Assembly (NCBI GenBank): GCA_034421015.1
Contig: DAOUKT010000013.1
Location: 5,965-69,964 of the forward strand
Direction of reading: 5' to 3'
Length of the DNA: 64,000 bases
Source of the DNA: Dehalococcoidia bacterium
Lineage (GTDB): Bacteria > Chloroflexota > Dehalococcoidia > Lucifugimonadales > UBA2985
Position 1 is the stretch's first letter. Every line of letters begins with the position of its first letter. The notes beneath the pieces were generated by a model. It saw only the letters and a program-made list of their open reading frames with translations. It was not told the DNA's origin and searched no databases. Both the position numbers and the translations under genes were made by a program. Positions 2,265-29,422 of this stretch are shown here, in pieces.

Positions 2265-5228
2265 ATGCGAACTATAGATTATGCAACCTTGGTCAAAAAG
2301 CCCTCCAACCTGGCCTGGTGGCACACGAGTTGGACTGGGCGATTAATCCTGGCGGCCCTCCTGGTGGCCGCCGCCGCTATGGTCCTCTTGCCAAACAGGG
2401 CCTCTGCGCAGGCGGCGCTGGTTCCCGCCGATGTTTGCAAAAGCCAGACAGACGGCGGGCAGATAGTCGACACATACTTGGCAACACCCGGCAATCCAGA
2501 CCTGATATCCGACTGTGTTGCGTTGCTTACTGCTGGAATGTCCTTGGATGATCCTAACGATGAAGTCAACTGGATAGTGGATGAAGGTCAGTCTCTGACA
2601 GACGACATAACCCAATGGACTGGGATCGGATTGTCCGCCGCCGACAATACCGCGCGAATTAACTCAGTTGACCTGGACACAGGTGTCGCAGATTTGACAG
2701 GATCAATTTCCGGTGAATGGGCCGAGCTGACGGCCCTGACGAGCCTGAATCTAGCCAACAACGACTTGAGTGGGGCCATCCCCCGTGAAGTCTGGGATCT
2801 CTTTGAGGAAAATCTGGATGAAGACGCGGGCGACGTCACGACTGGTACAACCCAGAGCAGGGCGAACTTCAATATCGACGGCAACCCTGACCTGAACCCG
2901 TCTCCCGCGCTCAACCTGAAGGCGGACGTGACCAAGATAGCGGAGGAAGACGAGGACAACGCCGGCAAGACCCGCATAGATGTCACGTTCAATACCGTCT
3001 GGTACACCTTGGAAGTCGGGAAGCATGATTACCGGTACCGGGTCGGTGACGGGGACTGGGGGCCGAACACGGCGGCTGACAGCAACGGCTGGAGAACACT
3101 GGAGACCAGATGTTACGACAGCGCGACGCCACCGGCCGCTCAACTCTGCGCCAAGACAGACGAAGAGGCCACGACTACCGTCAGGAACGATATACCTATA
3201 CATGGGCTGGACGCGGACAACTCCTACACCTTCGAGGTGCGGGCGGTCAAGGAGGTCTTGGGGGATAACCCTGATACGACGGAGGTCGAAACGGACTATG
3301 CCATAACCACAATGACCACGTCCACACTGGACCTCGTGGGCCCCCAGACGCTGACGGCGGGCAACATGTACAGCCTCGGCGTAGCGGTAGCTTACACGTC
3401 GGCTACGTCCGCGGACGCCGCAAAGCTTCCCAACCCGACTGTGGACTCCGAGGACGCGGGCAACATCAGGCTCACTTTCAACCCCCTTGCAGAGGGAGAC
3501 ACAACCGTCGACCTCGTGCAGGATCACGGCTCCCACGCCTTCCCGGTGGACATCCTGGCGGCGGACACGGCGCCAGCGAAAGCAAGGCAGATGCCCAACC
3601 GGGAGCTGCCCAATGACCGCCGGGCCGTGCGCATCAATCTTGCCAGGTATTTCGACGGCACTGACATCACATACAGCTTTGATGAGGGCAGCAATCCAGA
3701 AATCATTGAGACCAGCATCAATAATAGCAATGAGCTGGTCATGATTCCCAGGCGGATAGGCCAGACCTGGATAACCGTGACCGCTATGAACCCCAACAGG
3801 GCCACGACGACCCAGACCTTCAGGGTGAGGGTCATAGAGCCCAACAGCGCCCCGTTCCTGGCGGTTGCAATCCCTGACCTGACCCTCTACCTGGACGACC
3901 CGGGCACCCAGGTGGACATGAGGCAGTACTTCCGGGATGAGGACAACGACTTCCTGCAGTTCAGGCCGTCGTCGGCCGACCCCAGGAAGGTGACGGCAAC
4001 GGTCATTGGCCCCAACGTGATCTTCAACGTGGTGAATCTTGGCGAGACCAGGATGACCATCATTGCCCAGGACGGCCGGGGAGGTGAGGCGTTCAGCTCC
4101 TTCAACATCAGGGTGCTTGATCCCAATCAGGCGCCGGAAGCCGTGGGGGAGATTGCGTCCCAGCACATACGCCTTGATGAGGTGGCTGGCGTGGAGATAG
4201 ACGTCTCCGCGTACTTCTCGGACAGAGACCCGCTGACGTACACCGTGAAGTCGGCGGACGCTGGGATAGCGTCGGCGTCGGTGGAGGGCAGCGTGGTGGC
4301 GATAACGCCCGTGGCTGAGGGCGAGACTACGGTGACTGTGACGGCCACGGACGACGCCGGGGCAAGTGTCTCCCGAAACGGCAGGGTGGGGCAGCCCAAG
4401 TCTGCCACCCAGGAGATAATGGTGGAGATTCTGCCCGCCAACAAGCCGCCGGTGCTGGTGGGAGAGATACCGGACTATGAGATAAACGATGACGACGAGC
4501 CCCTTGGCGTGGACGTATCGCCCTACTTCAACGACCCGGACAGCGACCTGCTGTACTTCTCCGCAACCGGCAGCGATGATACCCTGGCCAGGGTGGACGT
4601 GCACGAGGTCTCCACGGTGGTGGTCAGGCTCCTGAGGCAGGTAGAGTCCGGCAGCGAGGAGACGCTTGAGATAACCGTGACCGCCAGGGACGAGGTGGGC
4701 GAGGCGGTTTCGGACGAGTTCGCGGTGAGAGTGGTGGGCAACCTGCCGCCGGAGGCGGTGGGCAGCCTGGACGCCCAGGTGCTCCTTGAGGGAGGCCGAG
4801 CGCTGGAGATCATGATGTCGGAGTACTTCACCGACGTTAATGGCGACGAGCTGGCGTTCACGGCCGAGTCCACCAACTCAACGGCCGTGGGGGCAATCAT
4901 AATCGACGGCAGCGACCTCCTGGTGCTGAGGCCCCTTGGCCCCGCCGAGGAGGTGGCGGTGACGGTGACGGCCACGGACCCGGACGGCGAGTCCGCGAAC
5001 CAGGGTGTAAACGTGACGGTGATTGCGGCTGCGCCGCCGCCCACTGCAACGCCGGAGCCGACGGCCACGCCGGAACCCACGGCTACGCCGGCGCCCACGG
5101 CTACGCCAGCGCCGACGGCTACGCCGGTGCCTGAAGAGGGCGGCTTCCCGATAGCGGTGATAGTGATAATAGTCCTGCTGCTGGCAGGCGCGGCTGCGGT
5201 GGTGTTCATCATCCAGCGAAGGCGCTAA
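2265..5228 (+). CDS. Large secreted, membrane-anchored surface protein (short LRR, FN3-like, multiple cadherin/Ig-like repeats, PT linker, C-terminal TM)
   Basis: Signal peptide ending ASA-Q; LRR LTALTSLNLANNDLSGAIP; YTFEVRA FN3-like strand; repeated N..P..vg.i...dvs.YF.D.D.d.L.y modules; PTATP linker; TM followed by QRRR. Confidence 0.9.
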   Translation: MRTIDYATLVKKPSNLAWWHTSWTGRLILAALLVAAAAMVLLPNRASAQAALVPADVCKSQTDGGQIVDTYLATPGNPDLISDCVALLTAGMSLDDPNDEVNWIVDEGQSLTDDITQWTGIGLSAADNTARINSVDLDTGVADLTGSISGEWAELTALTSLNLANNDLSGAIPREVWDLFEENLDEDAGDVTTGTTQSRANFNIDGNPDLNPSPALNLKADVTKIAEEDEDNAGKTRIDVTFNTVWYTLEVGKHDYRYRVGDGDWGPNTAADSNGWRTLETRCYDSATPPAAQLCAKTDEEATTTVRNDIPIHGLDADNSYTFEVRAVKEVLGDNPDTTEVETDYAITTMTTSTLDLVGPQTLTAGNMYSLGVAVAYTSATSADAAKLPNPTVDSEDAGNIRLTFNPLAEGDTTVDLVQDHGSHAFPVDILAADTAPAKARQMPNRELPNDRRAVRINLARYFDGTDITYSFDEGSNPEIIETSINNSNELVMIPRRIGQTWITVTAMNPNRATTTQTFRVRVIEPNSAPFLAVAIPDLTLYLDDPGTQVDMRQYFRDEDNDFLQFRPSSADPRKVTATVIGPNVIFNVVNLGETRMTIIAQDGRGGEAFSSFNIRVLDPNQAPEAVGEIASQHIRLDEVAGVEIDVSAYFSDRDPLTYTVKSADAGIASASVEGSVVAITPVAEGETTVTVTATDDAGASVSRNGRVGQPKSATQEIMVEILPANKPPVLVGEIPDYEINDDDEPLGVDVSPYFNDPDSDLLYFSATGSDDTLARVDVHEVSTVVVRLLRQVESGSEETLEITVTARDEVGEAVSDEFAVRVVGNLPPEAVGSLDAQVLLEGGRALEIMMSEYFTDVNGDELAFTAESTNSTAVGAIIIDGSDLLVLRPLGPAEEVAVTVTATDPDGESANQGVNVTVIAAAPPPTATPEPTATPEPTATPAPTATPAPTATPVPEEGGFPIAVIVIIVLLLAGAAAVVFIIQRRR
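5040..5129 (+). repeat. 18-bp coding tandem repeat (PTATP[E/A/V] x5)
   Basis: Translates to PTATPEPTATPEPTATPAPTATPAPTATPV. Confidence 0.85.
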
Positions 5229-5337: not shown

Positions 5338-5830
5338 CTACCATTCCTGCGCAGGCAGGAATCCAGGGCGACCGGCGGGGTGCGTCTCACGTAAGGGCGG
5401 TTCGCGAACCGCCCCTGCACATTCCCACTGAATTGGAGAGAGTCGGCAAGGGCGGCAGACTGCACGGGCGTGACGCGAAAAGGCCACGTCTCATCGTCAT
5501 TCCTGTGTAGACGGGAGCCCCACCCCTGGACTCCTGCCTGCGCAGGAGTGGTTGCGTTTTTCGTCATTCCCGTGAAAACGGGAATCCAGGGGCAGGGGGC
5601 GGAGACCATTCCTGCGAAGGCAGGAATCCACAGCGACCGGTGGGAGATGGCAGGGTGCTGTGGGCTCCCGTCTGCACGGGAGCGACGATGAACCGTCATT
5701 CCGGCGGGGGCCGGAATCCAGCGACTGGCGGTAGCCCAGCCCCTGGACTCCTGCCCCCGTATCAAGTACGGGGCAGGCTGCGCAGGAGTGGTCGCGTTTC
5801 TCGTCATTCCCGTGGAAACGGGAATCTAGG
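5338..5830. repeat. Intergenic REP mosaic (many CGTC-type, one GTAG-type at 5391-5418)
   Basis: Repeated cattcctgcgcaggcaggaatcc and cgtcattcccgtgaaaacgggaatcc palindromes, plus gtaagggcggttcgcgaaccgcccctgc, between convergent genes. Confidence 0.9.
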
Positions 5831-5845: not shown

Positions 5846-6649
5846 CTAGCCGCCGCCTTGTATAGCCCTCTCAACAGCCTCGTTGAGGCACAGGCCGTCA
5901 GTGAGGTTGCCGGAGGCGTCCAGGACGCGGCGGCCCTCGACGCGGATGTCCCCCTTGGAGAACGCCTTCAGCGTCTCCACAAGCAGCGGGCGCTCCCGCC
6001 TGACGCCCTCCTGCCGGATGAGCCGGAAGAGGGGCAGGTCCTCGCCTTGGCTAGCCTTGAGGAACTCAGTCGAGAGACTTATAGTCTGCCGCCGGAGCGG
6101 GTCGTAGGCGTCTCCGTGGATGGGGAAGGTGTAGTACGTGAGCACGGGGCCCCTGTCCAGGTCCTCCGTCGCCAGGTGGATGTACCCTCCGGCCTCCTGC
6201 GCCCCGTCCTCGATGAGGCTCCAGATGACCTCCTGCCACGTCCCCACCGGGCCGTTGGGCGGCGCAGGGTGGAAGTTCAGCATGGTGTACCGGTTGCACA
6301 GCTCGACGTCGGTTATCAGCATGTAGCCGGCCAGCACGCAGACGTCGGGGTCGAAACCCTCCAGTCGCCTCATCAACTCGCGGTCGAACTCCAGGCGATG
6401 CCTGGAGAAGGGCCCGCCGCCCCTGCTGCGACGGAACTCCTGGGACGAGAGCGTGACCAGGGGTATCCCGTAGTCGTTGGCCTGGCGGAAGAAGCGGTCG
6501 CTGCCCTCGGCCTCACCCGGCTCGCGGTTGCTGAAGATGAACTGGATATGGGCGTCGAGTTCGCCCGTCGAAATCGCCTCCTGCACCGTCTGGAGCAGAC
6601 CCAGGGAGCCTTCGCCGCGCCCCGTGGAGAACCAGCCTATGTCAATCAC
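5846..6649 (-). CDS. purN: Phosphoribosylglycinamide formyltransferase (long form)
   Basis: IGWFSTGRG N-terminus, LAGYM, LNFHP and DLDRGP formyltransferase motifs. Confidence 0.85.
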   Translation of the reverse strand: MIDIGWFSTGRGEGSLGLLQTVQEAISTGELDAHIQFIFSNREPGEAEGSDRFFRQANDYGIPLVTLSSQEFRRSRGGGPFSRHRLEFDRELMRRLEGFDPDVCVLAGYMLITDVELCNRYTMLNFHPAPPNGPVGTWQEVIWSLIEDGAQEAGGYIHLATEDLDRGPVLTYYTFPIHGDAYDPLRRQTISLSTEFLKASQGEDLPLFRLIRQEGVRRERPLLVETLKAFSKGDIRVEGRRVLDASGNLTDGLCLNEAVERAIQGGG

Positions 6650-7334: not shown

Positions 7335-7584
7335 GCTCCCTGTCCTCGGTTAGGAGGCGCATCTGCTCGCCGTAGGCCGTCTGCAGCCGCGTAATGCGAA
7401 GCTCCGCCGAGCTGAGAAGCTCGTTGCAGATGCGGGCCAGGCGCGTCCCCTCCTCAAAGAGGCGGGTGGCCTCGGCCAGGGACAGCCCGCCCTCTTCCAG
7501 GGCGCGGACCGTCTCCTCAAGGCTGGCGTAGGCCTCCTCGAAGGTTAGCTCCTCGCTGTTGGATTCGTCGTTGGCGTTGCTCAT
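7318..7584 (-). CDS. xseB: Exodeoxyribonuclease VII small subunit
   Basis: LTFEEA...LEETV..LEEG.LSL.EA..LFEEG..L...C...L..AELRI; directly follows xseA. Confidence 0.95.
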   Translation of the reverse strand: MSNANDESNSEELTFEEAYASLEETVRALEEGGLSLAEATRLFEEGTRLARICNELLSSAELRITRLQTAYGEQMRLLTEDREHGAEG

Positions 7585-8945
7585 GGCCTGTTTGATGGTT
7601 TCGACGAATTCCTCGGTGAGTTCCGCTCACCCTGAGCTTGTCGAAGGGCGTGAGCGGAACGACCACTTTGCCCCCGCTCAGTTGGTTCGACAGGCTCACC
7701 CCCGTATCCAGTACGGGGCAAGCTATGAGCGGGGAGGGAGGCTGCCTGCTCCGAGGTTCCTGTTCCGTTGGGCAGGACGCGGCCGGGGAAGCTGCCGCCT
7801 GCAACCGTGATGTCGAGATCGTCTCCGGGGCTGACCTGCTCAACCGATGTCACCGGCTCCCGGTTGTCCCGCCGCGCCACGACTGCGTAGCCCCTGGACA
7901 GCACGCCGGCCGGGTTGAGGGTCGCCAGCTGCATCTCCAGCGCCCCGACGCGCTCGCCGCGCAGGGCCAAGTAGGAGTCCAGGGCCCGGGCGCTGGCCTG
8001 GGAGAGGTCGTCCACCCGCTGCCTCCACGAGGGGACGTCCGGGGCGTGACGCTCCAGCCTGTAGCAGGTCTGGTCCAGGTCGCGGCTCCTGTCGCTCAGG
8101 TCGCCGGAAACCCACTGAAAGGCGTAACGCTGCCGGGACTCTACCCACTCCATCAGCTCGTCCACGTCCGGCGCGGCAAGCTCCGCGGCCGCGGAGGGCG
8201 TGGGGGCGCGGCAGTCGGCCACCATGTCCGCGATTGTGTAGTCCGTCTCGTGGCCCACGGCGCTGATGACGGGCGCGCGGCTGGCGTAGATGGCCCGGGC
8301 CACGGTCTCCTCGTTGAAGGGCCACAGGTCCTCCAGCGACCCGCCGCCGCGTGCCAGAATGACCAGGTCCAGGTCATCCTCCGCGTTGAACGCGTCAAAG
8401 GCGTCGACGATTCCCGCCGCCGCCGTGTCGCCCTGCACGGGTGTGGGCGCAAATGCAAGCTCCACCAGGGGGTACCGCCTTCGCAGGACGTTCTGGATGT
8501 CGTGCCACACGGCGCCTGTGGGCGACGTCGCAACCCCGATGCGCCTGGGGAACTCAGGAAGGGGCCTCTTGCGGGAGACCTGGAACAGGCCCTCCGCTTC
8601 CAGCTTCATCTTCAGCCGCTCCAGCTCCAGGTGAAGCTCGCCGACGCCCTCCGGCTGGGCCAGGTCTGCAATGAGCTGCAGGTCTCCCCGGACCTCGTAG
8701 AGGGAGACGCGCCCGTGGGCGATGACGGCCGCGCCCTCGGCGAGGTGTTCGCCGCCGTAGGCCGGGCGGAACATCACGCACCGCACCTGGCTCGCGGAGT
8801 CCTTGAGGGTGAAGTAGTAGTGGCCCGCCGCCGAGCGGGTCAGGTTGGACACCTCGCCCCTCAGCCAGAGATCGTTGAGCAGGGAGTCGGCTTCAAGGGA
8901 CTCCTTGAGGTACCGTGTGATCTGGCCGACGGAGTAGACGGGCAC
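7581..8945 (-). CDS. xseA: Exodeoxyribonuclease VII large subunit with repeat-derived C-terminal extension
   Basis: GEVSN, GHYYFTLKD, RGGGSLEDLWPFN, VGHETD.TIAD.VAD.RAPTPSAAAE and LSRGYA motifs. Confidence 0.97.
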   Translation of the reverse strand: MPVYSVGQITRYLKESLEADSLLNDLWLRGEVSNLTRSAAGHYYFTLKDSASQVRCVMFRPAYGGEHLAEGAAVIAHGRVSLYEVRGDLQLIADLAQPEGVGELHLELERLKMKLEAEGLFQVSRKRPLPEFPRRIGVATSPTGAVWHDIQNVLRRRYPLVELAFAPTPVQGDTAAAGIVDAFDAFNAEDDLDLVILARGGGSLEDLWPFNEETVARAIYASRAPVISAVGHETDYTIADMVADCRAPTPSAAAELAAPDVDELMEWVESRQRYAFQWVSGDLSDRSRDLDQTCYRLERHAPDVPSWRQRVDDLSQASARALDSYLALRGERVGALEMQLATLNPAGVLSRGYAVVARRDNREPVTSVEQVSPGDDLDITVAGGSFPGRVLPNGTGTSEQAASLPAHSLPRTGYGGEPVEPTERGQSGRSAHALRQAQGERNSPRNSSKPSNRP

Positions 8946-15856: not shown

Positions 15857-15884
15857 GTAGGGACGGTTTGCGAACCGCCCCTAC
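15857..15884. repeat. GTAG-type REP palindrome
   Basis: gtagggacggtttgcgaaccgcccctac; a perfect copy occurs at 18324-18351. Confidence 0.85.
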
Positions 15885-17983: not shown

Positions 17984-18390
17984 ACCATTCCTGCACAGGG
18001 AGGCCATTGCGTAACTAAGGCGGCTTCTTGGAGGACCTACGTTTCTCGTCATTCCCGCGAAAGGAGACCTTTACGTAACTACGGCGGCATCTCGGAGGCA
18101 ATACGTTTATCGTCATTCCCGCGAAAGCGGGAATCTAATTCCTTCTATATCGAACCTCCTGGATTCCTGCTTCCGCAGGAATGGTCGGGAGGCGCTCGCC
18201 CCAAACGAGGTTATTCAAATGTCTCCACAGGCAGGAATCCAGGCCGGGCGAGTGGCGCCGAAGAATCCACAGCAATACTCGGCTGCGACGTAGTGACATC
18301 CTCAACCGGCAGCCTGTCGCGACGTAGGGGCGGTTCGCGAACCGCCCCTACTCTTTATTGACCATTCCTGCGGAGGCAGGAATCCACGCG
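17984..18390. repeat. Intergenic REP/MITE mosaic between divergent-strand ars promoter and acyl-CoA ligase
   Basis: Several CGTC-type REPs, a partial MITE (from ~18000), a full MITE (18063-18226) and a GTAG REP (18324-18351). Confidence 0.85.
18063..18226. mobile_element. 164-bp MITE-like element inserted in a REP loop
   Basis: Imperfect TIRs ggagacctttacgtaac and gttattcaaatgtctcc. Flanks cattcccgc-GAAA and ACAG-gcaggaatcc. Interior homologous to 22897-23056. Confidence 0.65.
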
Positions 18391-19881: not shown

Positions 19882-20580
19882 TTATTCCTCTTCCAGAACC
19901 ACCCTGGCGTCAACTGCGACCAGGCCGTCGGAGTAGCAGAAGATGGGGTTGAGGTCCAGTTCCCTCACCTCTTCGTGCTGCTCCAGGAAGCTCGACAGGT
20001 TGAGAAGCGCCTGCTCAATGCTCTCCAAGCTGCAGGCCGGGTAGTTGCGGTAGCCCTGGAGCAGGGGCAGGCTCTTGATCTCCCGCACCATCTCCCGGGC
20101 GTCCCGGGGAGTGAGGGGCACCAGCCGAAGGGACACGTCCTTCAGCATCTCCACAAGCACTCCGCCAAGCCCGAACATGATCACGTGGCCGAACTGGGGG
20201 TCCTTGTTGGCGCCTATGATGATCTCGACTCCGGGGTCGGCCATCCTCTGCACCGATACGCCCAGGATGCTGGCCGATGGCACCGCCTCCTGAGTGGACG
20301 ACACGATGGAGTCGAATGCGCCTCTGACCTGCCTTAGGCTGTCCAGCCCGACCTTGACGCCGCCCACGTCGCTCTTGTGGGTCACCTCCGGCGAGACAAT
20401 CTTCAGGACAACGGGAAGCCCCATCTCCTGGGCCAGCTTGGTTGCCTCCGTCCTGGTGCGGGCAAGCTGGGTGTCCATCACCGGTATGCCTGACTCCCGC
20501 AAAAGGTCCTTGGATTCGACCTCTGTTAGTAGTGTCCTGCCATCCTGGCGCGCTTTCTGAATAACTTCAGCAACAGTCAT
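19882..20580 (-). CDS. NDP-forming acyl-CoA synthetase beta subunit (ATP-grasp)
   Basis: LTEVESK.LL...GIP, PVVLKIVSP..THKSDVGGV, DPQFG.V.MFGLGG and ELDLNP..VDAR motifs. Confidence 0.92.
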   Translation of the reverse strand: MTVAEVIQKARQDGRTLLTEVESKDLLRESGIPVMDTQLARTRTEATKLAQEMGLPVVLKIVSPEVTHKSDVGGVKVGLDSLRQVRGAFDSIVSSTQEAVPSASILGVSVQRMADPGVEIIIGANKDPQFGHVIMFGLGGVLVEMLKDVSLRLVPLTPRDAREMVREIKSLPLLQGYRNYPACSLESIEQALLNLSSFLEQHEEVRELDLNPIFCYSDGLVAVDARVVLEEE

Positions 20581-20638: not shown

Positions 20639-20689
20639 CTTCCGGGCGCCGCGCCGGGGCCTTTCGGTTATAGCTAGCGAGCTAATCTT

Positions 20690-20834
20690 CCCGCTCATAG
20701 CCTGCCCCGTACTGGATACGGGGGTGAGCTTGTCGAACCATTTGAGCGGGAAGGCTGTAGGCGTAGTTGACACCGCTCATTTCCTTCGACTGGCTCAGAG
20801 CTTGCCCCGTACTTGATACGGGGATGAGCGGTGT
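20690..20834. repeat. Two TTCGAC/GCTCA-family repeats, each with a nested 23-bp module
   Basis: Modules at 20701-20723 and 20801-20823. Confidence 0.8.
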
Positions 20835-20927
20835 CGCGCGCCATAATCAACGCCTGTAGAGAATACCAAGGGCCGCGCAGAGACTTGTTCCATTGCGCGC
20901 CGCGCCCTATCCTTTAGCGGACGGCTT

Positions 20928-21749
20928 ATGATCCCAAGAGTAGCAAGCGCAGTCGTGGGGATACCGGTGGTGCTGGCGGCCGTGTGGGCCGGCGCGCCCT
21001 GGTTCTCGCTGCTTGCGGCGACTGCCGCGTCCCTTGGCGCGCTTGAGTTCTACAGACTGGCCGAGGGGCGCGATGCCCGGCCTGCCGTCGTGCCCGGCAT
21101 ACTGTGGACGCTGAGCTTCATTGTTGCCGGCCACCAGGGAGGCTCCCTCACGACCCTGGCGCTGGTTGGGGGCGGGGCGGCCGCGTTCATCTGGCACCTG
21201 GCGGCACATCTGGCGCGCCGAGGGGAAGAGGCCCCATCCGGCTTTCAGAACGCTGACGTGCAGGACTTCGGCTACACAGCCGCGGGCGCGATCTACGTCG
21301 GCCTGCCGCTATCGCTGGCCTTGGTCCTGCGGGCCGAGCCCCAGGGCCTGGAGTGGATTTTGGTCGTCATACTGGGCGCGTTCGCAACCGACACGGGGGC
21401 CTTCTTCACGGGCCGGGCCATCGGCAGGCGGCCCCTCGCTCCCGGCATCAGCCCGGGCAAGACCCAGGAAGGAGCGTTGGGTGGACTTGTCGCGGGTGTC
21501 GCCGCGGTCATGGCCCTGGCCGCGCTCCTGGAGCTGCCGGTGTCGATACCTCAATCGGCCGTACTTGGCGCGCTTGTATCGGTGGCAGGCCAGGCAGGGG
21601 ACCTGGTGGAATCGAAGATCAAGCGGGCCGCCGGGGCCAAGGACGCGGGCGGACTCATACCCGGCCACGGCGGCATCCTGGACAGGCTGGACAGCGTTGT
21701 CTTCGTAATTGTGGTGGTATATGCTTTCTATATAGTGGTTGCACTTTAG
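20928..21749 (+). CDS. cdsA: Phosphatidate cytidylyltransferase
   Basis: TDTGAFFTGR.IG, ISPGKT.EG..GG and GDL.ES.IKR.AG.KD.G.LIPGHGGILDRLDS motifs. Confidence 0.96.
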   Translation: MIPRVASAVVGIPVVLAAVWAGAPWFSLLAATAASLGALEFYRLAEGRDARPAVVPGILWTLSFIVAGHQGGSLTTLALVGGGAAAFIWHLAAHLARRGEEAPSGFQNADVQDFGYTAAGAIYVGLPLSLALVLRAEPQGLEWILVVILGAFATDTGAFFTGRAIGRRPLAPGISPGKTQEGALGGLVAGVAAVMALAALLELPVSIPQSAVLGALVSVAGQAGDLVESKIKRAAGAKDAGGLIPGHGGILDRLDSVVFVIVVVYAFYIVVAL

Positions 21750-26386: not shown

Positions 26387-26434
26387 AACTCGGGAGTCAG
26401 AGGTTCCCTGCCCTCTTGGGTGGTTGATGCTGAT

Positions 26435-27553
26435 ATGACAAACCAGGAACAGGACAGGCTCCCTGACATTCTGGAAAAGGTCAGTGAGTTGGCCCGAAAG
26501 GCGTCAGGCGATGACTACCTGTACCGCGGAGAGCCTCAACGCTATAACGAAGTATCTTCGAGTCTTTTTCGGGAATATCCCGACATTGAGGCCGAGCGAT
26601 TCAATATAGAAGTTGTACAACAGGAGATCCTCGACGAGGCCAAAAGGTTCACCCGCGAGACCAACGATGACTTTATCCTTGAGCAGCTTCAGCACTTTGG
26701 TTATCCTACCAACCAGATCGACTTCACCAAGGATTACCTTATTGCCCTCTTCTTTGCCTGTGACGGACACCCGGAGGAAGACGGACGGGTTATTCTGCTG
26801 AGCAAGGCGGGCCGCGACGACCTCAAAGAACCAAAAACTCCGGCGAACCGCGTCATTTCCCAGAAGAGCGTATTCGTGAGACCGTCAAGTGGATTTATTG
26901 AAGCTGAAGATGCCGTTGTTATACCCAAGACTCTGAAGAGACCCATCCTTGAGTACCTGGACAAGAACCATGGCGTAAATGCCCCGGCCCTTTTCAATGA
27001 TATACACGGATTCATAAAATACTACACTGTTCATCGGAGTGCCTATGTGGACTTCCACACTGGCCTAACGTATGGGCGAAAAAAGGAATACAGCAAAGCT
27101 ATAGAACACTTTAGCAAAGCCATCGAGCGCAACCCACAAATGTTCCCGGCTTATGTTAATCGAGGCATCGCATACCGGTTTATGGGTAATTACATCTCTG
27201 CGATTAGGGACCACGAAAAGGCAATAGAATTGAACCCAAATTCCCCCCAAGCCTATAACAGCAAGGGTGTTACTTACCGGCAACAAGGCAGATACGAACT
27301 TGCGATTCAGGACTTCACCAAGGCAATTGAATTGAATTCAGACTATGGCACCGCCTATGGCAATCGAGGTTTGAGTTCGCTATTCTTGGGTGATTGGGGC
27401 AATGGCGAGTCAGACCTGTCTCGCGCACAGAGCCTAGGATTCAACATAGTTTCTGCTTTTTCCCGAGAGTTCGGCGGCGTCGCAGACTTTGAGCGGAATT
27501 TCAAAGTTCAATTTCCTGAAAACATTATGAAGATGCTTACGCATGAGCAGTGA
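26435..27553 (+). CDS. FRG-domain protein with C-terminal TPR repeats
   Basis: YLYRGE, QHFGYPT..IDFT.D..IALFFAC and R..SQKSVF FRG motifs; TPRs AI.HFSKAIE.NP, AY.NRG.AY; AT-richer than flanks. Alternative start GTG at 26420. Confidence 0.88.
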   Translation: MTNQEQDRLPDILEKVSELARKASGDDYLYRGEPQRYNEVSSSLFREYPDIEAERFNIEVVQQEILDEAKRFTRETNDDFILEQLQHFGYPTNQIDFTKDYLIALFFACDGHPEEDGRVILLSKAGRDDLKEPKTPANRVISQKSVFVRPSSGFIEAEDAVVIPKTLKRPILEYLDKNHGVNAPALFNDIHGFIKYYTVHRSAYVDFHTGLTYGRKKEYSKAIEHFSKAIERNPQMFPAYVNRGIAYRFMGNYISAIRDHEKAIELNPNSPQAYNSKGVTYRQQGRYELAIQDFTKAIELNSDYGTAYGNRGLSSLFLGDWGNGESDLSRAQSLGFNIVSAFSREFGGVADFERNFKVQFPENIMKMLTHEQ

Positions 27554-27596
27554 TGGCTAATGGAGTGCACAGATGGGTAGAGAACACCACTAGCGG

Positions 27597-28787
27597 GTGA
27601 GCAGCTCCATGAAGGCACTTCCAAGCCAGACAATGCTGCCCTTTGCTACGAGGATTGGTCTGGCCGTCTTGGTCATATCACTAATTTCAGCCTCTACTCC
27701 TACGCTTCCACGTGCTCTTGCACAAGATACCTCCGCGGACCGCGCCGCGTTGGTTGCGCTCTACAACGCCACAAATGGCCCAAACTGGAAGGATAATACA
27801 AACTGGCTGAGCGACGCGCCGATAAGCGAATGGTACGGCGTGACAACCAACGCTGATGGCCGCGTAACTGAATTGTTCCTCTTTGATAACTGGCTGAATG
27901 GTGAGATACCGCCTGAGTTGGGCAATCTTACCAATCTGTCATTGCTGTGGCTCATGGATAACCGTCTGAGCGGGGAGATACCGCTCGAACTTAGCAAACT
28001 ATCCAAACTTTCAGTCTTGGTTCTCTTAGGGAATCAATTGAGTGGGGAGATACCTCCTGAACTAGTTAGACTCACAAACCTGACTTGGCTATCTCTTGAT
28101 GCCAACCAACTGAGCGGGGAGATACCGCTGGAGTTATCCAAACTCACTAACTTGGTCGACCTTGGCCTCTCGGAGAACCTTTTGAGCGGGGAGGTGCCAC
28201 CGGAGTTGGCCAGCCTCTCCAAACTTGAAACTCTGGCGCTTAGCAACAACCAGTTGACTGGGGAGATACCGTCAGAGGTGGGCAGCCTACTCAATTTGGC
28301 ACACCTGTTCCTAAACAATAATCAGTTGAGCGGGGAGATACCATCTGAGTTGGGAAGCCTCACCAACTTGAGAGTGCTGTGGCTCTCGGAGAACCGTCTG
28401 AACGGGGAGATACCACCTGAGTTAAGTAATCTCTCCAAGCTGACAGTCCTGAATCTCGCAGGGAACCGATTGACTGGTTGCATTCCTCGTAGTTTGCAGA
28501 CGGTACAGCACAATGACCTTACAGACCTCGGAATGCTGTTCTGTGGCGTGGAGGCTCCAACATCTGCGCCTACCCCAATCTCTACACCCATATCCACAGC
28601 CACAGCCGCGCCCGCGCCGACACCTACACCCTCTATTGAGAGGGGTTTCTTCTTCAACTCAAATCCCAGCCAGAGAACCCCGGAAACGGAGAGGTCTTTT
28701 AACCTCTTGGATCCGGTGACACTATCCCTGATCGGCATAATCCTGACCCTGATTGCCACCAGTATTCAACTCTTCAAAGGAAGGTAG
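27597..28787 (+). CDS. Secreted leucine-rich-repeat protein (plant-receptor-like LRR) with C-terminal TM anchor
   Basis: Signal peptide ending ALA-Q; DRAALVALYNAT.G.NW cap; about eight 24-aa L..L.L..NxLSGEIPxELxxL repeats; PT linker; terminal TM. Confidence 0.92.
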   Translation: MSSSMKALPSQTMLPFATRIGLAVLVISLISASTPTLPRALAQDTSADRAALVALYNATNGPNWKDNTNWLSDAPISEWYGVTTNADGRVTELFLFDNWLNGEIPPELGNLTNLSLLWLMDNRLSGEIPLELSKLSKLSVLVLLGNQLSGEIPPELVRLTNLTWLSLDANQLSGEIPLELSKLTNLVDLGLSENLLSGEVPPELASLSKLETLALSNNQLTGEIPSEVGSLLNLAHLFLNNNQLSGEIPSELGSLTNLRVLWLSENRLNGEIPPELSNLSKLTVLNLAGNRLTGCIPRSLQTVQHNDLTDLGMLFCGVEAPTSAPTPISTPISTATAAPAPTPTPSIERGFFFNSNPSQRTPETERSFNLLDPVTLSLIGIILTLIATSIQLFKGR

Positions 28788-28789
28788 AG

Positions 28790-29422
28790 ATGACTGCCGC
28801 AGTTCGGATAGCGATAAATCTGTTGGTCGGCTTGCCGTTCTTCGTCACGGGCGTCCTTGCCCTCACAAACGAAGATATACCTTGGCAGGCGTCACTTGCA
28901 GTCATACTCGTCGGGGTATTCGTAGTCCTGGTAGGCGTGTACGTCAACATACTGTCTCGACCTCGTCTGAACCCCATGTCGGATGAAGAAATACTCGTGC
29001 TGCGGCATCCATCAATGAAGCCTGCCTTCGTACGAATAGCCATGAGCGGTCCCTTTTTCGCGGCCTCCGGCTATATGCTGGAGTTCACGTTGCTGCCTTA
29101 CGTCTATCCGTTCATCCCGTTCCTTATTGCCATGTACCTGTACTTCAGAGGAGTCATCAAGTATTGGATAAATCACCAGACTACTTACTACGTGACCAAC
29201 CGCCGCGCAGTGCACATGTACCGATTCGCGTGGCTGGACACGACTGAGATACCTGTGAATGCAATCAACTCCATCTCGGAGACCAGGAGCTTTGTTGAGA
29301 TGATATCCGGCAGAGGAAGCGTGCAGGTAGCCAGCGGCATCGGCGCTCGTCACAAGGTGGGTATGCAGGAGATGGATAACCCTGGCCCGGTGGCAGAGAC
29401 ACTTCGCCAGCTAATGCCTTAA
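28790..29422 (+). CDS. Membrane protein with C-terminal bacterial PH domain
   Basis: Four hydrophobic segments, then TTYYVTNRR....R......EIP...I..I......E...G.GSV (bPH_2-like). Confidence 0.75.
   Translation: MTAAVRIAINLLVGLPFFVTGVLALTNEDIPWQASLAVILVGVFVVLVGVYVNILSRPRLNPMSDEEILVLRHPSMKPAFVRIAMSGPFFAASGYMLEFTLLPYVYPFIPFLIAMYLYFRGVIKYWINHQTTYYVTNRRAVHMYRFAWLDTTEIPVNAINSISETRSFVEMISGRGSVQVASGIGARHKVGMQEMDNPGPVAETLRQLMP

Follow-up and report, generated by a model that had tools for sequence, protein, structure and literature searches.

A 25-nt hairpin module that interrupts other repeats and genes in Chloroflexota and other phyla: a candidate ultra-small mobile element

A short hairpin module, present in five copies in the 64,000-nt stretch of DNA analysed here (the window), very probably inserts independently into other sequences, as far as sequence comparison alone can tell. 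Comparison of its copies established its anatomy, its exact boundaries, its independent presence or absence at many sites, a family of sibling hairpins and a spread across phyla, and the module is a discrete, oriented, non-coding element. The best overall explanation, to which we assign a probability of about one half, is that of an inserting hairpin element moved as single-stranded DNA in trans by a Y1/HUH enzyme. Mobility is well supported; the mechanism is inferred.

Module copies and their hosts in the window

The five copies that an initial annotation of this DNA had listed were all recovered as matches to CYTGCCCCGTACTKGATACGGGG (2008-2030 +, 5755-5777 -, 7700-7722 -, 20701-20723 + and 20801-20823 +). 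Their number stays at five when up to three mismatches are allowed, against an expectation of 0 (no match in 100 shuffles of the window), and none of the five is held by functional coding sequence. The copies and their host repeats are as follows (^ marks the junction).

1990-2046, + strand: CGTC-tagged REP hosting copy 1 (CGTC-1 / dRS3-like; family named in PMC3733652)
2006-2030, + strand: module copy 1 (AGCCTGCCCCGTACTTGATACGGGG), at the 3' edge of the GCAG loop in the CGTC-tagged REP
5530-5549, no strand: empty paralog of the copy 2 host (ACTCCTGC CTGC GCAGGAGT), 23 nt shorter than the filled one
5755-5779, - strand: module copy 2, in the loop of the 8-bp palindrome ACTCCTGC/GCAGGAGT
7600-7760, - strand: host composite repeat of the GCTCA/TTCGAC family, site 1 filled, site 2 empty (GCTCAG^GGTGAGCGG)
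7700-7724, - strand: module copy 3 (AGCTTG..G variant), at GCTCAT^GGTGAGC in the GCTCA/TTCGAC composite
20650-20850, + strand: host composite repeat of copies 4 and 5, both sites filled
20699-20723, + strand: module copy 4, at GCTCAT^GGTGAGC
20799-20823, + strand: module copy 5 (AGCTTG variant), at GCTCAG^GATGAGC, in the composite shared with copy 4

Copy 1 lies upstream of a Big_9-domain gene (2265-5228, +), in a REP laid out as CGTCATGCCCGT GCAG .. ACGGGCATCC. Copy 2, identical in sequence in contig L131, lies between this gene and a convergent one (5846-6649, -), and its host palindrome adjoins a REP. The composite carrying copy 3 lies between xseA and xseB and is crossed by the xseA reading frame (..SLPRTGYGG..), while copies 4 and 5 lie between divergent genes (19882-20580, -, and 20928-21749, +). 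The initial annotation had correctly assigned three copies to the GCTCA/TTCGAC family; its placing of the other two in CGTC-REP loops applies to the copy at 2008 only, the one at 5755 being in a separate palindrome. AG lies directly 5' of the module in all five copies, as had also been stated; this AG, found in 95% of copies, belongs to the conserved unit and is mostly brought by the element, not by the target.

Some other features of the window may be recorded here. The xseA frame extends 61 codons past its conserved end (7581-7760, -), with a stop just past the xseB start codon, and this 61-residue XseA tail (..SLPAHSLPRTGYGGEPVEPTERG..ALRQAQGER..) consists of repeat DNA read as protein. The AGCCTG leader also belongs to a longer unit, AGCCTGCCGCAACCACTCCCGCGCAGGCAGGAGTCC, found at 229-270 and 1405-1446, as well as in L121 (~4290-4340). 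This unit includes the copy 2 host palindrome, and in L121 the unit again comes directly after GCAG. Several module types may thus have the AG^CCTG junction in common. A block of three genes at 26420-29422 has a third-position GC of 0.55-0.66 (~0.85 in its neighbours) and encodes FRG+TPR, leucine-rich-repeat and bacterial PH-domain proteins; it may be foreign DNA.

Extent, anatomy and sibling modules

The initial annotation gave the unit a size of 23 bp, which has to be revised. A cross-species scan with the hairpin core alone (GCCCCGTACTNGATACGGGG), using one genome per species, yielded at least 143 copies in at least 119 tiles of 8 kb. The 132 non-redundant copies among the matches listed share a conserved unit of 25 nt, AGCCTG-CCCCGTA-CTNGA-TACGGGG, in which a hairpin with 7 bp of stem and 5 nt of loop (CCCCGTA CTNGA TACGGGG) carries a 6-nt leader (AG + CCTG) directly at its foot. 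Filled sites usually exceed empty ones by 24 nt (AGCCTG..ACGGG), situated 5' of a G. Within these 132 copies the CCTG of the leader is conserved at 97%, 89%, 93% and 100%, respectively, the preceding A and G at 95% each, and a second A-G further upstream more weakly (81 and 72%). The 3' edge is sharp, conservation ending abruptly past GGGG, and the final G was present in 167 of 169 copies in a looser search that did not require it. Only two positions of the 25-mer are variable: leader position 4 (C/T) and one loop base (C/T/G, never A). The hairpin has a folding energy of -7.4 kcal/mol (z = -3.6, DNA fold); in a single-stranded DNA fold its stem stacks directly on the 3' arm of the host, the old loop and the leader becoming an 8-nt bulge.

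The module has siblings that keep the AGCCTG-CCCC..GGGG frame on other stems. Once main modules are set aside, 32% of AGCCTGCCC sites are directly followed by a perfect hairpin of at least 6 bp with a different interior (e.g. CGA-GCAG-TCG, CGC-GAAG-GCG, CGT-GAAA-ACG or GGA-CTTGA-TCC), compared with 0.4-2.9% for controls. Double changes that preserve pairing occur among siblings at 5 of the 7 stem pairs; as this set was pre-selected for pairing, it is the rate of 32% that constitutes the fair test. Some sibling interiors equal those of local CGTC REPs.

Modules are occasionally found close together. Two lie head to tail at ~7090-7140 of L086 (reverse complement), with a period of 23 and no AG between them, two different siblings are 1 nt apart in L049, and a 46-nt unit (module plus 23-nt spacer) is duplicated at 87-152 of L009.

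Empty and filled sites

Occupancy was recorded as whatever stands between fixed left and right flanks, blind to the module. Four host sites turned out to be either empty or filled by exactly 24 nt, AGCCTG..ACGGG, and the other spacings hold sequences unrelated to the module, apart from a sibling.

GGYTAG^GRTGRGG: empty 28, filled by the 24-nt main module 12
GCTCAG^GGCGAACGG: empty 24, filled by the 24-nt main module 5
CGTC-REP loop, NAG^GCGGGAA: empty 26, filled by the 24-nt main module 22
CCGCTCAY^GGTGAGC: empty 3, filled by the 24-nt main module 6

A 23-nt sibling, AGCCTGCCCCCGAGCAGTCGGGG, also occurs nine times in the CGTC-REP loop. The target itself supplies the final G of the 25-mer; every empty partner examined has a G at this position. 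The empty site that had been noticed near 5531 is real: ACTCCTGC^CTGCGCAGGAGT (5530-5549) is exactly 23 nt shorter than its filled counterpart at 5745-5790, the boundary being ambiguous by 1 nt. A difference of 23 nt was found in three cases in all (the window pair 5531/5755, the copy 1 GCAG-loop REP, and L113 compared with L032); the target already ends in A or AG there, coinciding with the start of the leader. The junction is nearly uniform, though imperfectly so, and no target duplication is present at any junction.

Paralogs of a single composite make the same point within one repeat. Three paralogs of the ~130-bp GCTCA/TTCGAC composite, which has two sites, are filled/filled (window 20650-20850), empty/filled (L121) and filled/empty (window 7760-7600), and the gap at the empty site 1 of L121 is exactly 24 nt.

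In L041 and L050 a host site also used by the main module (GGTTAG^..^GATGGGG) contains a different insert of ~24 nt, AGCCTGCCCTGAGCCTGYCGAAGG. As this insert corresponds to the TTCGAC..GGCTCAGGG motif in reverse, the widespread TTCGAC repeat may itself belong to this kind of module.

Spread across genomes and independence of copies

Altogether the module was found in at least 133 distinct flank contexts, in at least about 85 species genomes (54 Chloroflexota and ~31 from other phyla). Carriers belong to the Chloroflexota, several classes of Proteobacteria, Desulfobacterota, Nitrospirota and others, and include cultured Pseudoxanthomonas isolates; no cyanobacterial genome is among the at least 119 loci listed. 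The near-identity of the module across phyla implies horizontal spread of either the element or its mobiliser. At least five repeat families serve as its hosts, the CGTC REP doing so in both orientations, and it is also present in many unique sequences, some of them coding.

Long reading frames containing the module include genes for IS630-type (at two different positions), IS66 and IS5-type transposases, and an SNF2-like helicase gene has it twice in one ORF, in frame. In-frame copies encode SLPRTxYG in one orientation and PVSSTGQA in the other. At five coding sites module-free homologs were available; they match the filled sequences at 79-90% identity across hundreds of bases, and the length difference is exactly 24 nt, located 5' of a G. 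As the piece is 24 nt long, copies within genes survive as in-frame inserts of eight codons; where the loop base is T, a TGA stop arises in the sense frame and the gene is truncated (L055 and L090). At least nine independent coding insertions have identical exact boundaries and carry no donor flank.

These distinct contexts, the coding sites and the paralog combinations lead us to reject ancestry from a single composite. The outcome that, according to the initial annotation, would have refuted its proposal, i.e. descent of all filled copies from one or two composite ancestral repeats, therefore fails, given at least five host families, unique coding sites and three filled/empty combinations among paralogs. 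The proposal itself, an ultra-small element inserting into other repeats, is supported by the exact differences between empty and filled sites and by the number of flank contexts; that the change was an insertion rather than an excision remains an inference.

Some copies have chimeric flanks (L002 4688, L111, L005), with an upstream half from one host repeat and a downstream half from another, which points to either recombination through the module or an insertion coupled with a deletion. At ~4660-4740 of L002, for instance, GGGAGAGGGTTAG is upstream of the module and the 3' half of a CGTC REP downstream.

Several possible sources or relatives of the module were examined and set aside. A phage origin was not retained, IMG/VR giving only three matches, nor was a plasmid origin, for which there were two weak matches, one of them to a sibling module on Sinorhizobium meliloti pSymB. 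That sibling, AGCCTGCCCCGGACTTGATCCGGGG, lies in frame (..VDGACPGLDPGYWLVSF..) at 2501-2527 of L130, in an annotated transposase fragment beside a HigA/RelE pair, and its hairpin core is the loop-stem of CGTC-REP variants in Syntrophaceae. A link with retropepsins was considered since the peptide ACPVLDTG is encoded in one frame of the module and sister loci contain genes for small aspartic proteases; the DNA of these genes is unrelated to the module and the resemblance was dismissed as coincidence. A non-exhaustive literature search with the module sequence, its RNA form and its encoded peptides returned no match.

Target preference

Empty sites give the target as (C/A)-A-(G>T>A)^G, with an A at -2 in nearly all independent cases. 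The rule given in the initial annotation, that each module lies within another palindrome, fits the five copies of the window and does not hold in general: 24-33% of 123 contexts are in a hairpin loop (perfect stem of at least 5-6 bp), compared with 2-6% of control N^G positions at the same loci. Loops are thus enriched about 10 times over controls, the main geometry being the 3' edge of a 4-nt loop. No covariation was detected between CTTG leader variants and the -1 base of the target.

There is no bias towards the transcribed strand (16 sense and 17 antisense copies between co-directional genes), so that the 5/5 sense arrangement in the window is due to chance. This lack of bias argues against an RNA function or an RNA route and in favour of a process at the DNA level.

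Comparison with a second strain and sister species

Comparison of orthologous empty and filled sites in sister genomes, as the initial annotation had recommended, did not yield the decisive case: no strictly orthologous site differing by the module alone was found in the second strain or the sister species, and the three comparable sites are fixed. In the second strain (L121 and L128, ~96.6% nucleotide identity, measured around the copy 2 mosaic in its flanking genes), copies 3, 4 and 5 are unchanged. The mosaic of ~240 bp containing copy 2 (window 5560-5830) is replaced there by an entirely different mosaic of the same kinds of repeats (L121 4150-4360). In sister species (~90% amino-acid identity in XseA), XseA has 393 aa and xseA abuts xseB, with no repeat between them. 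The replacement of the copy 2 mosaic and the absence of the xseA-xseB repeat from sister species indicate that mosaics turn over quickly. The strain-variable mosaic sits downstream of a formyltransferase gene, as if a cassette had been replaced.

Search for a mobiliser and proposed mechanism

The initial annotation had called for a co-occurring HUH/RAYT, IS110 or reverse-transcriptase (RT) gene, and none linked to the module was found in the loci sampled. Searches with jackhmmer and phmmer detected no Y1 gene flanked by the module in ~1.1 Mb sampled around more than 140 copies (not whole genomes). The sole Y1 gene in this sample encodes a RAYT (L074 2346-2936, -) with the HUH motif NHLHG and the tyrosine motif YYEHVIR; it is flanked by a GTAG REP, GTAGGGGCGGTTCGCGAACCGCCCCTAC, rather than by the module, and a copy of this REP lies in frame inside the gene. 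GTAGGGGCGGTTCGCGAACCGCCCCTAC occurs in the window at 5395-5414, 15861-15880 and 18328-18347 and is otherwise limited to contigs of the same species and to two Dehalococcoidia loci (L041 and L074). As this REP is restricted to so few related genomes, the L074 RAYT is not the general mobiliser. Clustering of the 3,042 ORFs from the at least 119 tiles revealed nothing enriched beyond common housekeeping genes and IS630, and no transposase, RT or RAYT was identified by Pfam in 20 window ORFs (~35 others were outside the scan).

A route can nevertheless be proposed, with a single-stranded intermediate and an enzyme class that are both inferred. The 24-nt piece AGCCTG..ACGGG would enter directly 5' of a G, usually after (C/A)-A-(G/T), the target G completing the final stem pair without target duplication. 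It would be carried in trans as single-stranded DNA by a Y1/HUH (RAYT-like) enzyme able to recognise the hairpin, to take the CCTG at its foot as a guide tetranucleotide and to cut on both sides of one hairpin, with extruded loops and replication forks as sources of single-stranded targets. Single-stranded, HUH-type movement of this kind would account for the preference for extruded loops, and nested repeats would arise because palindrome loops are hit about 10 times more often than control positions.

The analogy is with REP/RAYT systems. There, cleavage is guided by a tetranucleotide lying 5' of the hairpin foot, and RAYTs can cut a lone REP on its 5' or its 3' side (PMC8266576, PMC6006769). 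CA cleavage sites of the Marinomonas GTAG REP are chosen by cross-complementarity with T2 and G4 of the guide (PMC8266576, PMC6006769). By the same logic, T3G4 of a CCTG guide would be expected to select CA, which resembles the C/A-A at -3/-2 of the target, with the cut one base further on. Characterised RAYTs have a CT or CA dinucleotide at the cleavage sites on either side of the REP. Resting on analogy and lacking demonstration, the HUH route itself can only be held tentatively. Several observations speak against it: no Y1 gene in the loci sampled is flanked by the module; the tag is CCTG rather than GT[AG]G or CGTC; REPs are normally species-specific and the module is near-identical across phyla; the junction varies, with three cases of 23 nt and the others of 24 nt; CTTG variants occur without covariation in the target; and the left and right cuts are preceded by different bases (A-G/T and G-G, respectively).

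Other explanations

The main rival to HUH-type movement dispenses with a dedicated enzyme altogether and invokes template switching (copy-choice) or short-tract gene conversion, which we regard as unlikely. A stalled nascent strand would anneal to another copy by 1-2 nt of microhomology (5' AG, 3' G), copy the leader and hairpin, be released as the new hairpin folds, and return to its original template. An insert of 23 or 24 nt depending on whether the A/AG of the target is shared, and a target G that always overlaps the 3' end, have the appearance of microhomology. The fading of conservation on the 5' side (95% for AG, 72-81% for the preceding AG) and its sharp 3' end, the chimeric flanks of L002 4688, L111 and L005, and the failure to find a linked gene in the loci sampled would be in keeping with such a process. 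What it does not lead one to expect is that at least nine independent coding insertions would share the same exact boundaries without any donor flank, or that occupancy would be almost only 0 or exactly 24 nt; it also leaves unexplained the recurrence across phyla of one 25-mer with two variable positions and the constant AGCCTG-CCCC..GGGG frame of the siblings. Less probable again is an RNA-templated micro-retroelement, in which an RT acting in trans would copy a short leader-plus-hairpin RNA into nicked DNA in a SINE-like manner, with the 3' end of the target as primer. Such copying could produce an oriented element without target duplication, a variable overlap of 0-2 nt at the 5' junction with a fixed 3' end, and the G-U-compatible stem variants (UG or GU at 4 of the 7 stem pairs), but the copies have neither a tail nor the variable 5' truncation usual in retro-copies and show no strand bias relative to transcription. 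Moreover, no RT gene was seen among the ORF families recurring across tiles or in the 20 window ORFs tested, and the whole window matched no Rfam family at the gathering threshold.

The module could also be an immobile functional site, such as a protein-binding hairpin, a terminator or an RNA stabiliser, spread within larger repeats or by repeated selection. A binding protein might explain why the sequence is so strongly constrained, the three sites open to comparison are fixed within the species of the window, and at xseA-xseB it is the whole composite, not the module alone, that sister species lack. Against this, unrelated unique sequences and genes contain the module and differ from their homologs by exactly 24 nt, it is independently present at two sites of one repeat, it is found in both orientations and favours neither the sense strand nor locations downstream of genes, and a 25-mer cannot arise repeatedly by point mutation. 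The exact empty/filled differences and the two-site paralogs largely refute this explanation, which we consider highly improbable. An inserting element moved in trans remains the preferred reading. A MITE derived from a DDE transposase was rejected, as nothing at the 3' end mirrors the AGCCTG leader and target duplications are lacking.

Relation to known small repeats

REPs are defined by a GT[AG]G tetranucleotide at the foot of the hairpin, or CGTC in a second superfamily (PMC3733652, PMC6006769), which 'apparently lacks a dedicated transposase' and whose CGTC-1 family includes Neisseria dRS3 (PMC3733652). The module (7-bp stem, 5-nt loop, ~25 nt) resembles them in having a tetranucleotide directly 5' of the foot of a short GC-rich hairpin, in meeting the criterion of a stem of at least 7 bp and a loop of 2-5 nt, in combining a constant tag with stems that vary through compensating changes, and in its dispersed, mostly intergenic, mosaic-building copies; REP copies inside genes are also known. 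GTAG-23 REPs of Thermomicrobium roseum have been reported inserted within small palindromes (REP sources PMC3733652, PMC8266576, PMC6006769). With a CCTG tag preceded by AG, however, the module is not a GTAG or CGTC REP. It differs further in being almost identical across phyla, whereas REPs are described as species-specific, in occurring as single copies rather than the head-to-head pairs of REPINs, in showing exact 24-nt empty and filled states, and in that no RAYT gene flanked by it was found in the ~1.1 Mb sampled.

The likeness to small dispersed repeats (SDRs) of Nostoc, suggested in the initial annotation, is an apt analogy. Elhai and colleagues reportedly described in Nostoc punctiforme, in 2008 (Genome Research 18:1484), SDR4-6 of 21-27 nt that interrupt other repeats; their mobility is said to have been inferred from interrupted and uninterrupted sequences, with no coding capacity and an unknown mechanism. 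The module likewise satisfies the description of a dispersed repeat of 21-27 nt interrupting continuous sequences, including other repeats. Reports of SDRs are confined to Nostocaceae (PMC5861425), whereas the module is present in Chloroflexota and other phyla. Its sequence is presumably unrelated to those of the SDRs, and for the module a fixed leader-plus-hairpin layout and in-frame 24-nt gene insertions are established here.

IS200/IS605 elements and the coding-free PATEs have two different ends (LE and RE) with a hairpin each, span hundreds of bases or more, insert 3' of a strict tetra- or pentanucleotide and, as is proposed for the module, prefer single-stranded targets. The module shares with them oriented insertion by a short target motif without target duplication, and their subterminal hairpins with a 5' guide tetranucleotide resemble its layout. 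It differs in that one hairpin would have to serve both ends and in that its target is limited to an A at -2 and a G at +1.

Rickettsia palindromic elements (RPEs), reportedly described by Ogata and colleagues in 2000, are said to be selfish elements of 100-150 bp, confined to one genus and found in frame in genes. Like the module, they are palindromic repeats lying in frame in protein-coding genes without destroying them; their length and their restriction to one genus set them apart. RPE-4 and RPE-6 have been equated with CGTC REPs (PMC3733652). As for the Neisseria dRS3 and NIMEs, the host REP of copy 1 has the CGTC-1 layout, and intergenic mosaics of interleaved small repeats are seen here as in NIMEs, but the module is a guest inside such REPs and not the REP itself. 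dRS3 is a target for IS110-type and phage integration. Overall, the module reads as a new CCTG-tagged, cross-phylum REP-like or SDR-like micro-element, and it appears to rank among the smallest known mobile DNAs.

Significance and minor observations

How REP-like repeats spread is a long-standing open question. The module offers junctions at single-nucleotide resolution, a defined target (A at -2, G at +1), a guide-like tag and dozens of natural sites, some of them in genes, which make the mechanism directly testable with oligonucleotides and candidate enzymes. A broader reading is possible, though we would not call it probable: a pan-bacterial family of single-hairpin elements of 23-25 nt (AGCCTG-CCCC..GGGG), moved in trans with precision into single-stranded DNA targets, might be a main builder of nested intergenic mosaics in Chloroflexota and other phyla and might seed 8-residue protein inserts, through an unidentified, horizontally spread enzyme (a new Y1/HUH class or another), indicated by the conserved CCTG foot, whose target rule is perhaps reprogrammable.

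The module also accounts for many spurious or extended ORFs, as seen in the peptides SLPRTGYG and PVSSTGQA and in the 61-residue XseA tail. In L013, a Saprospiraceae MAG (Bacteroidota), a module-bearing composite (VPRIKYGAG) lies in frame in the receiver domain of a 1331-aa hybrid histidine kinase. Finally, a short-read contig (L129, a Logan contig) ends exactly within the module (..CTCATAGCCTGC), which appears to break short-read assemblies.
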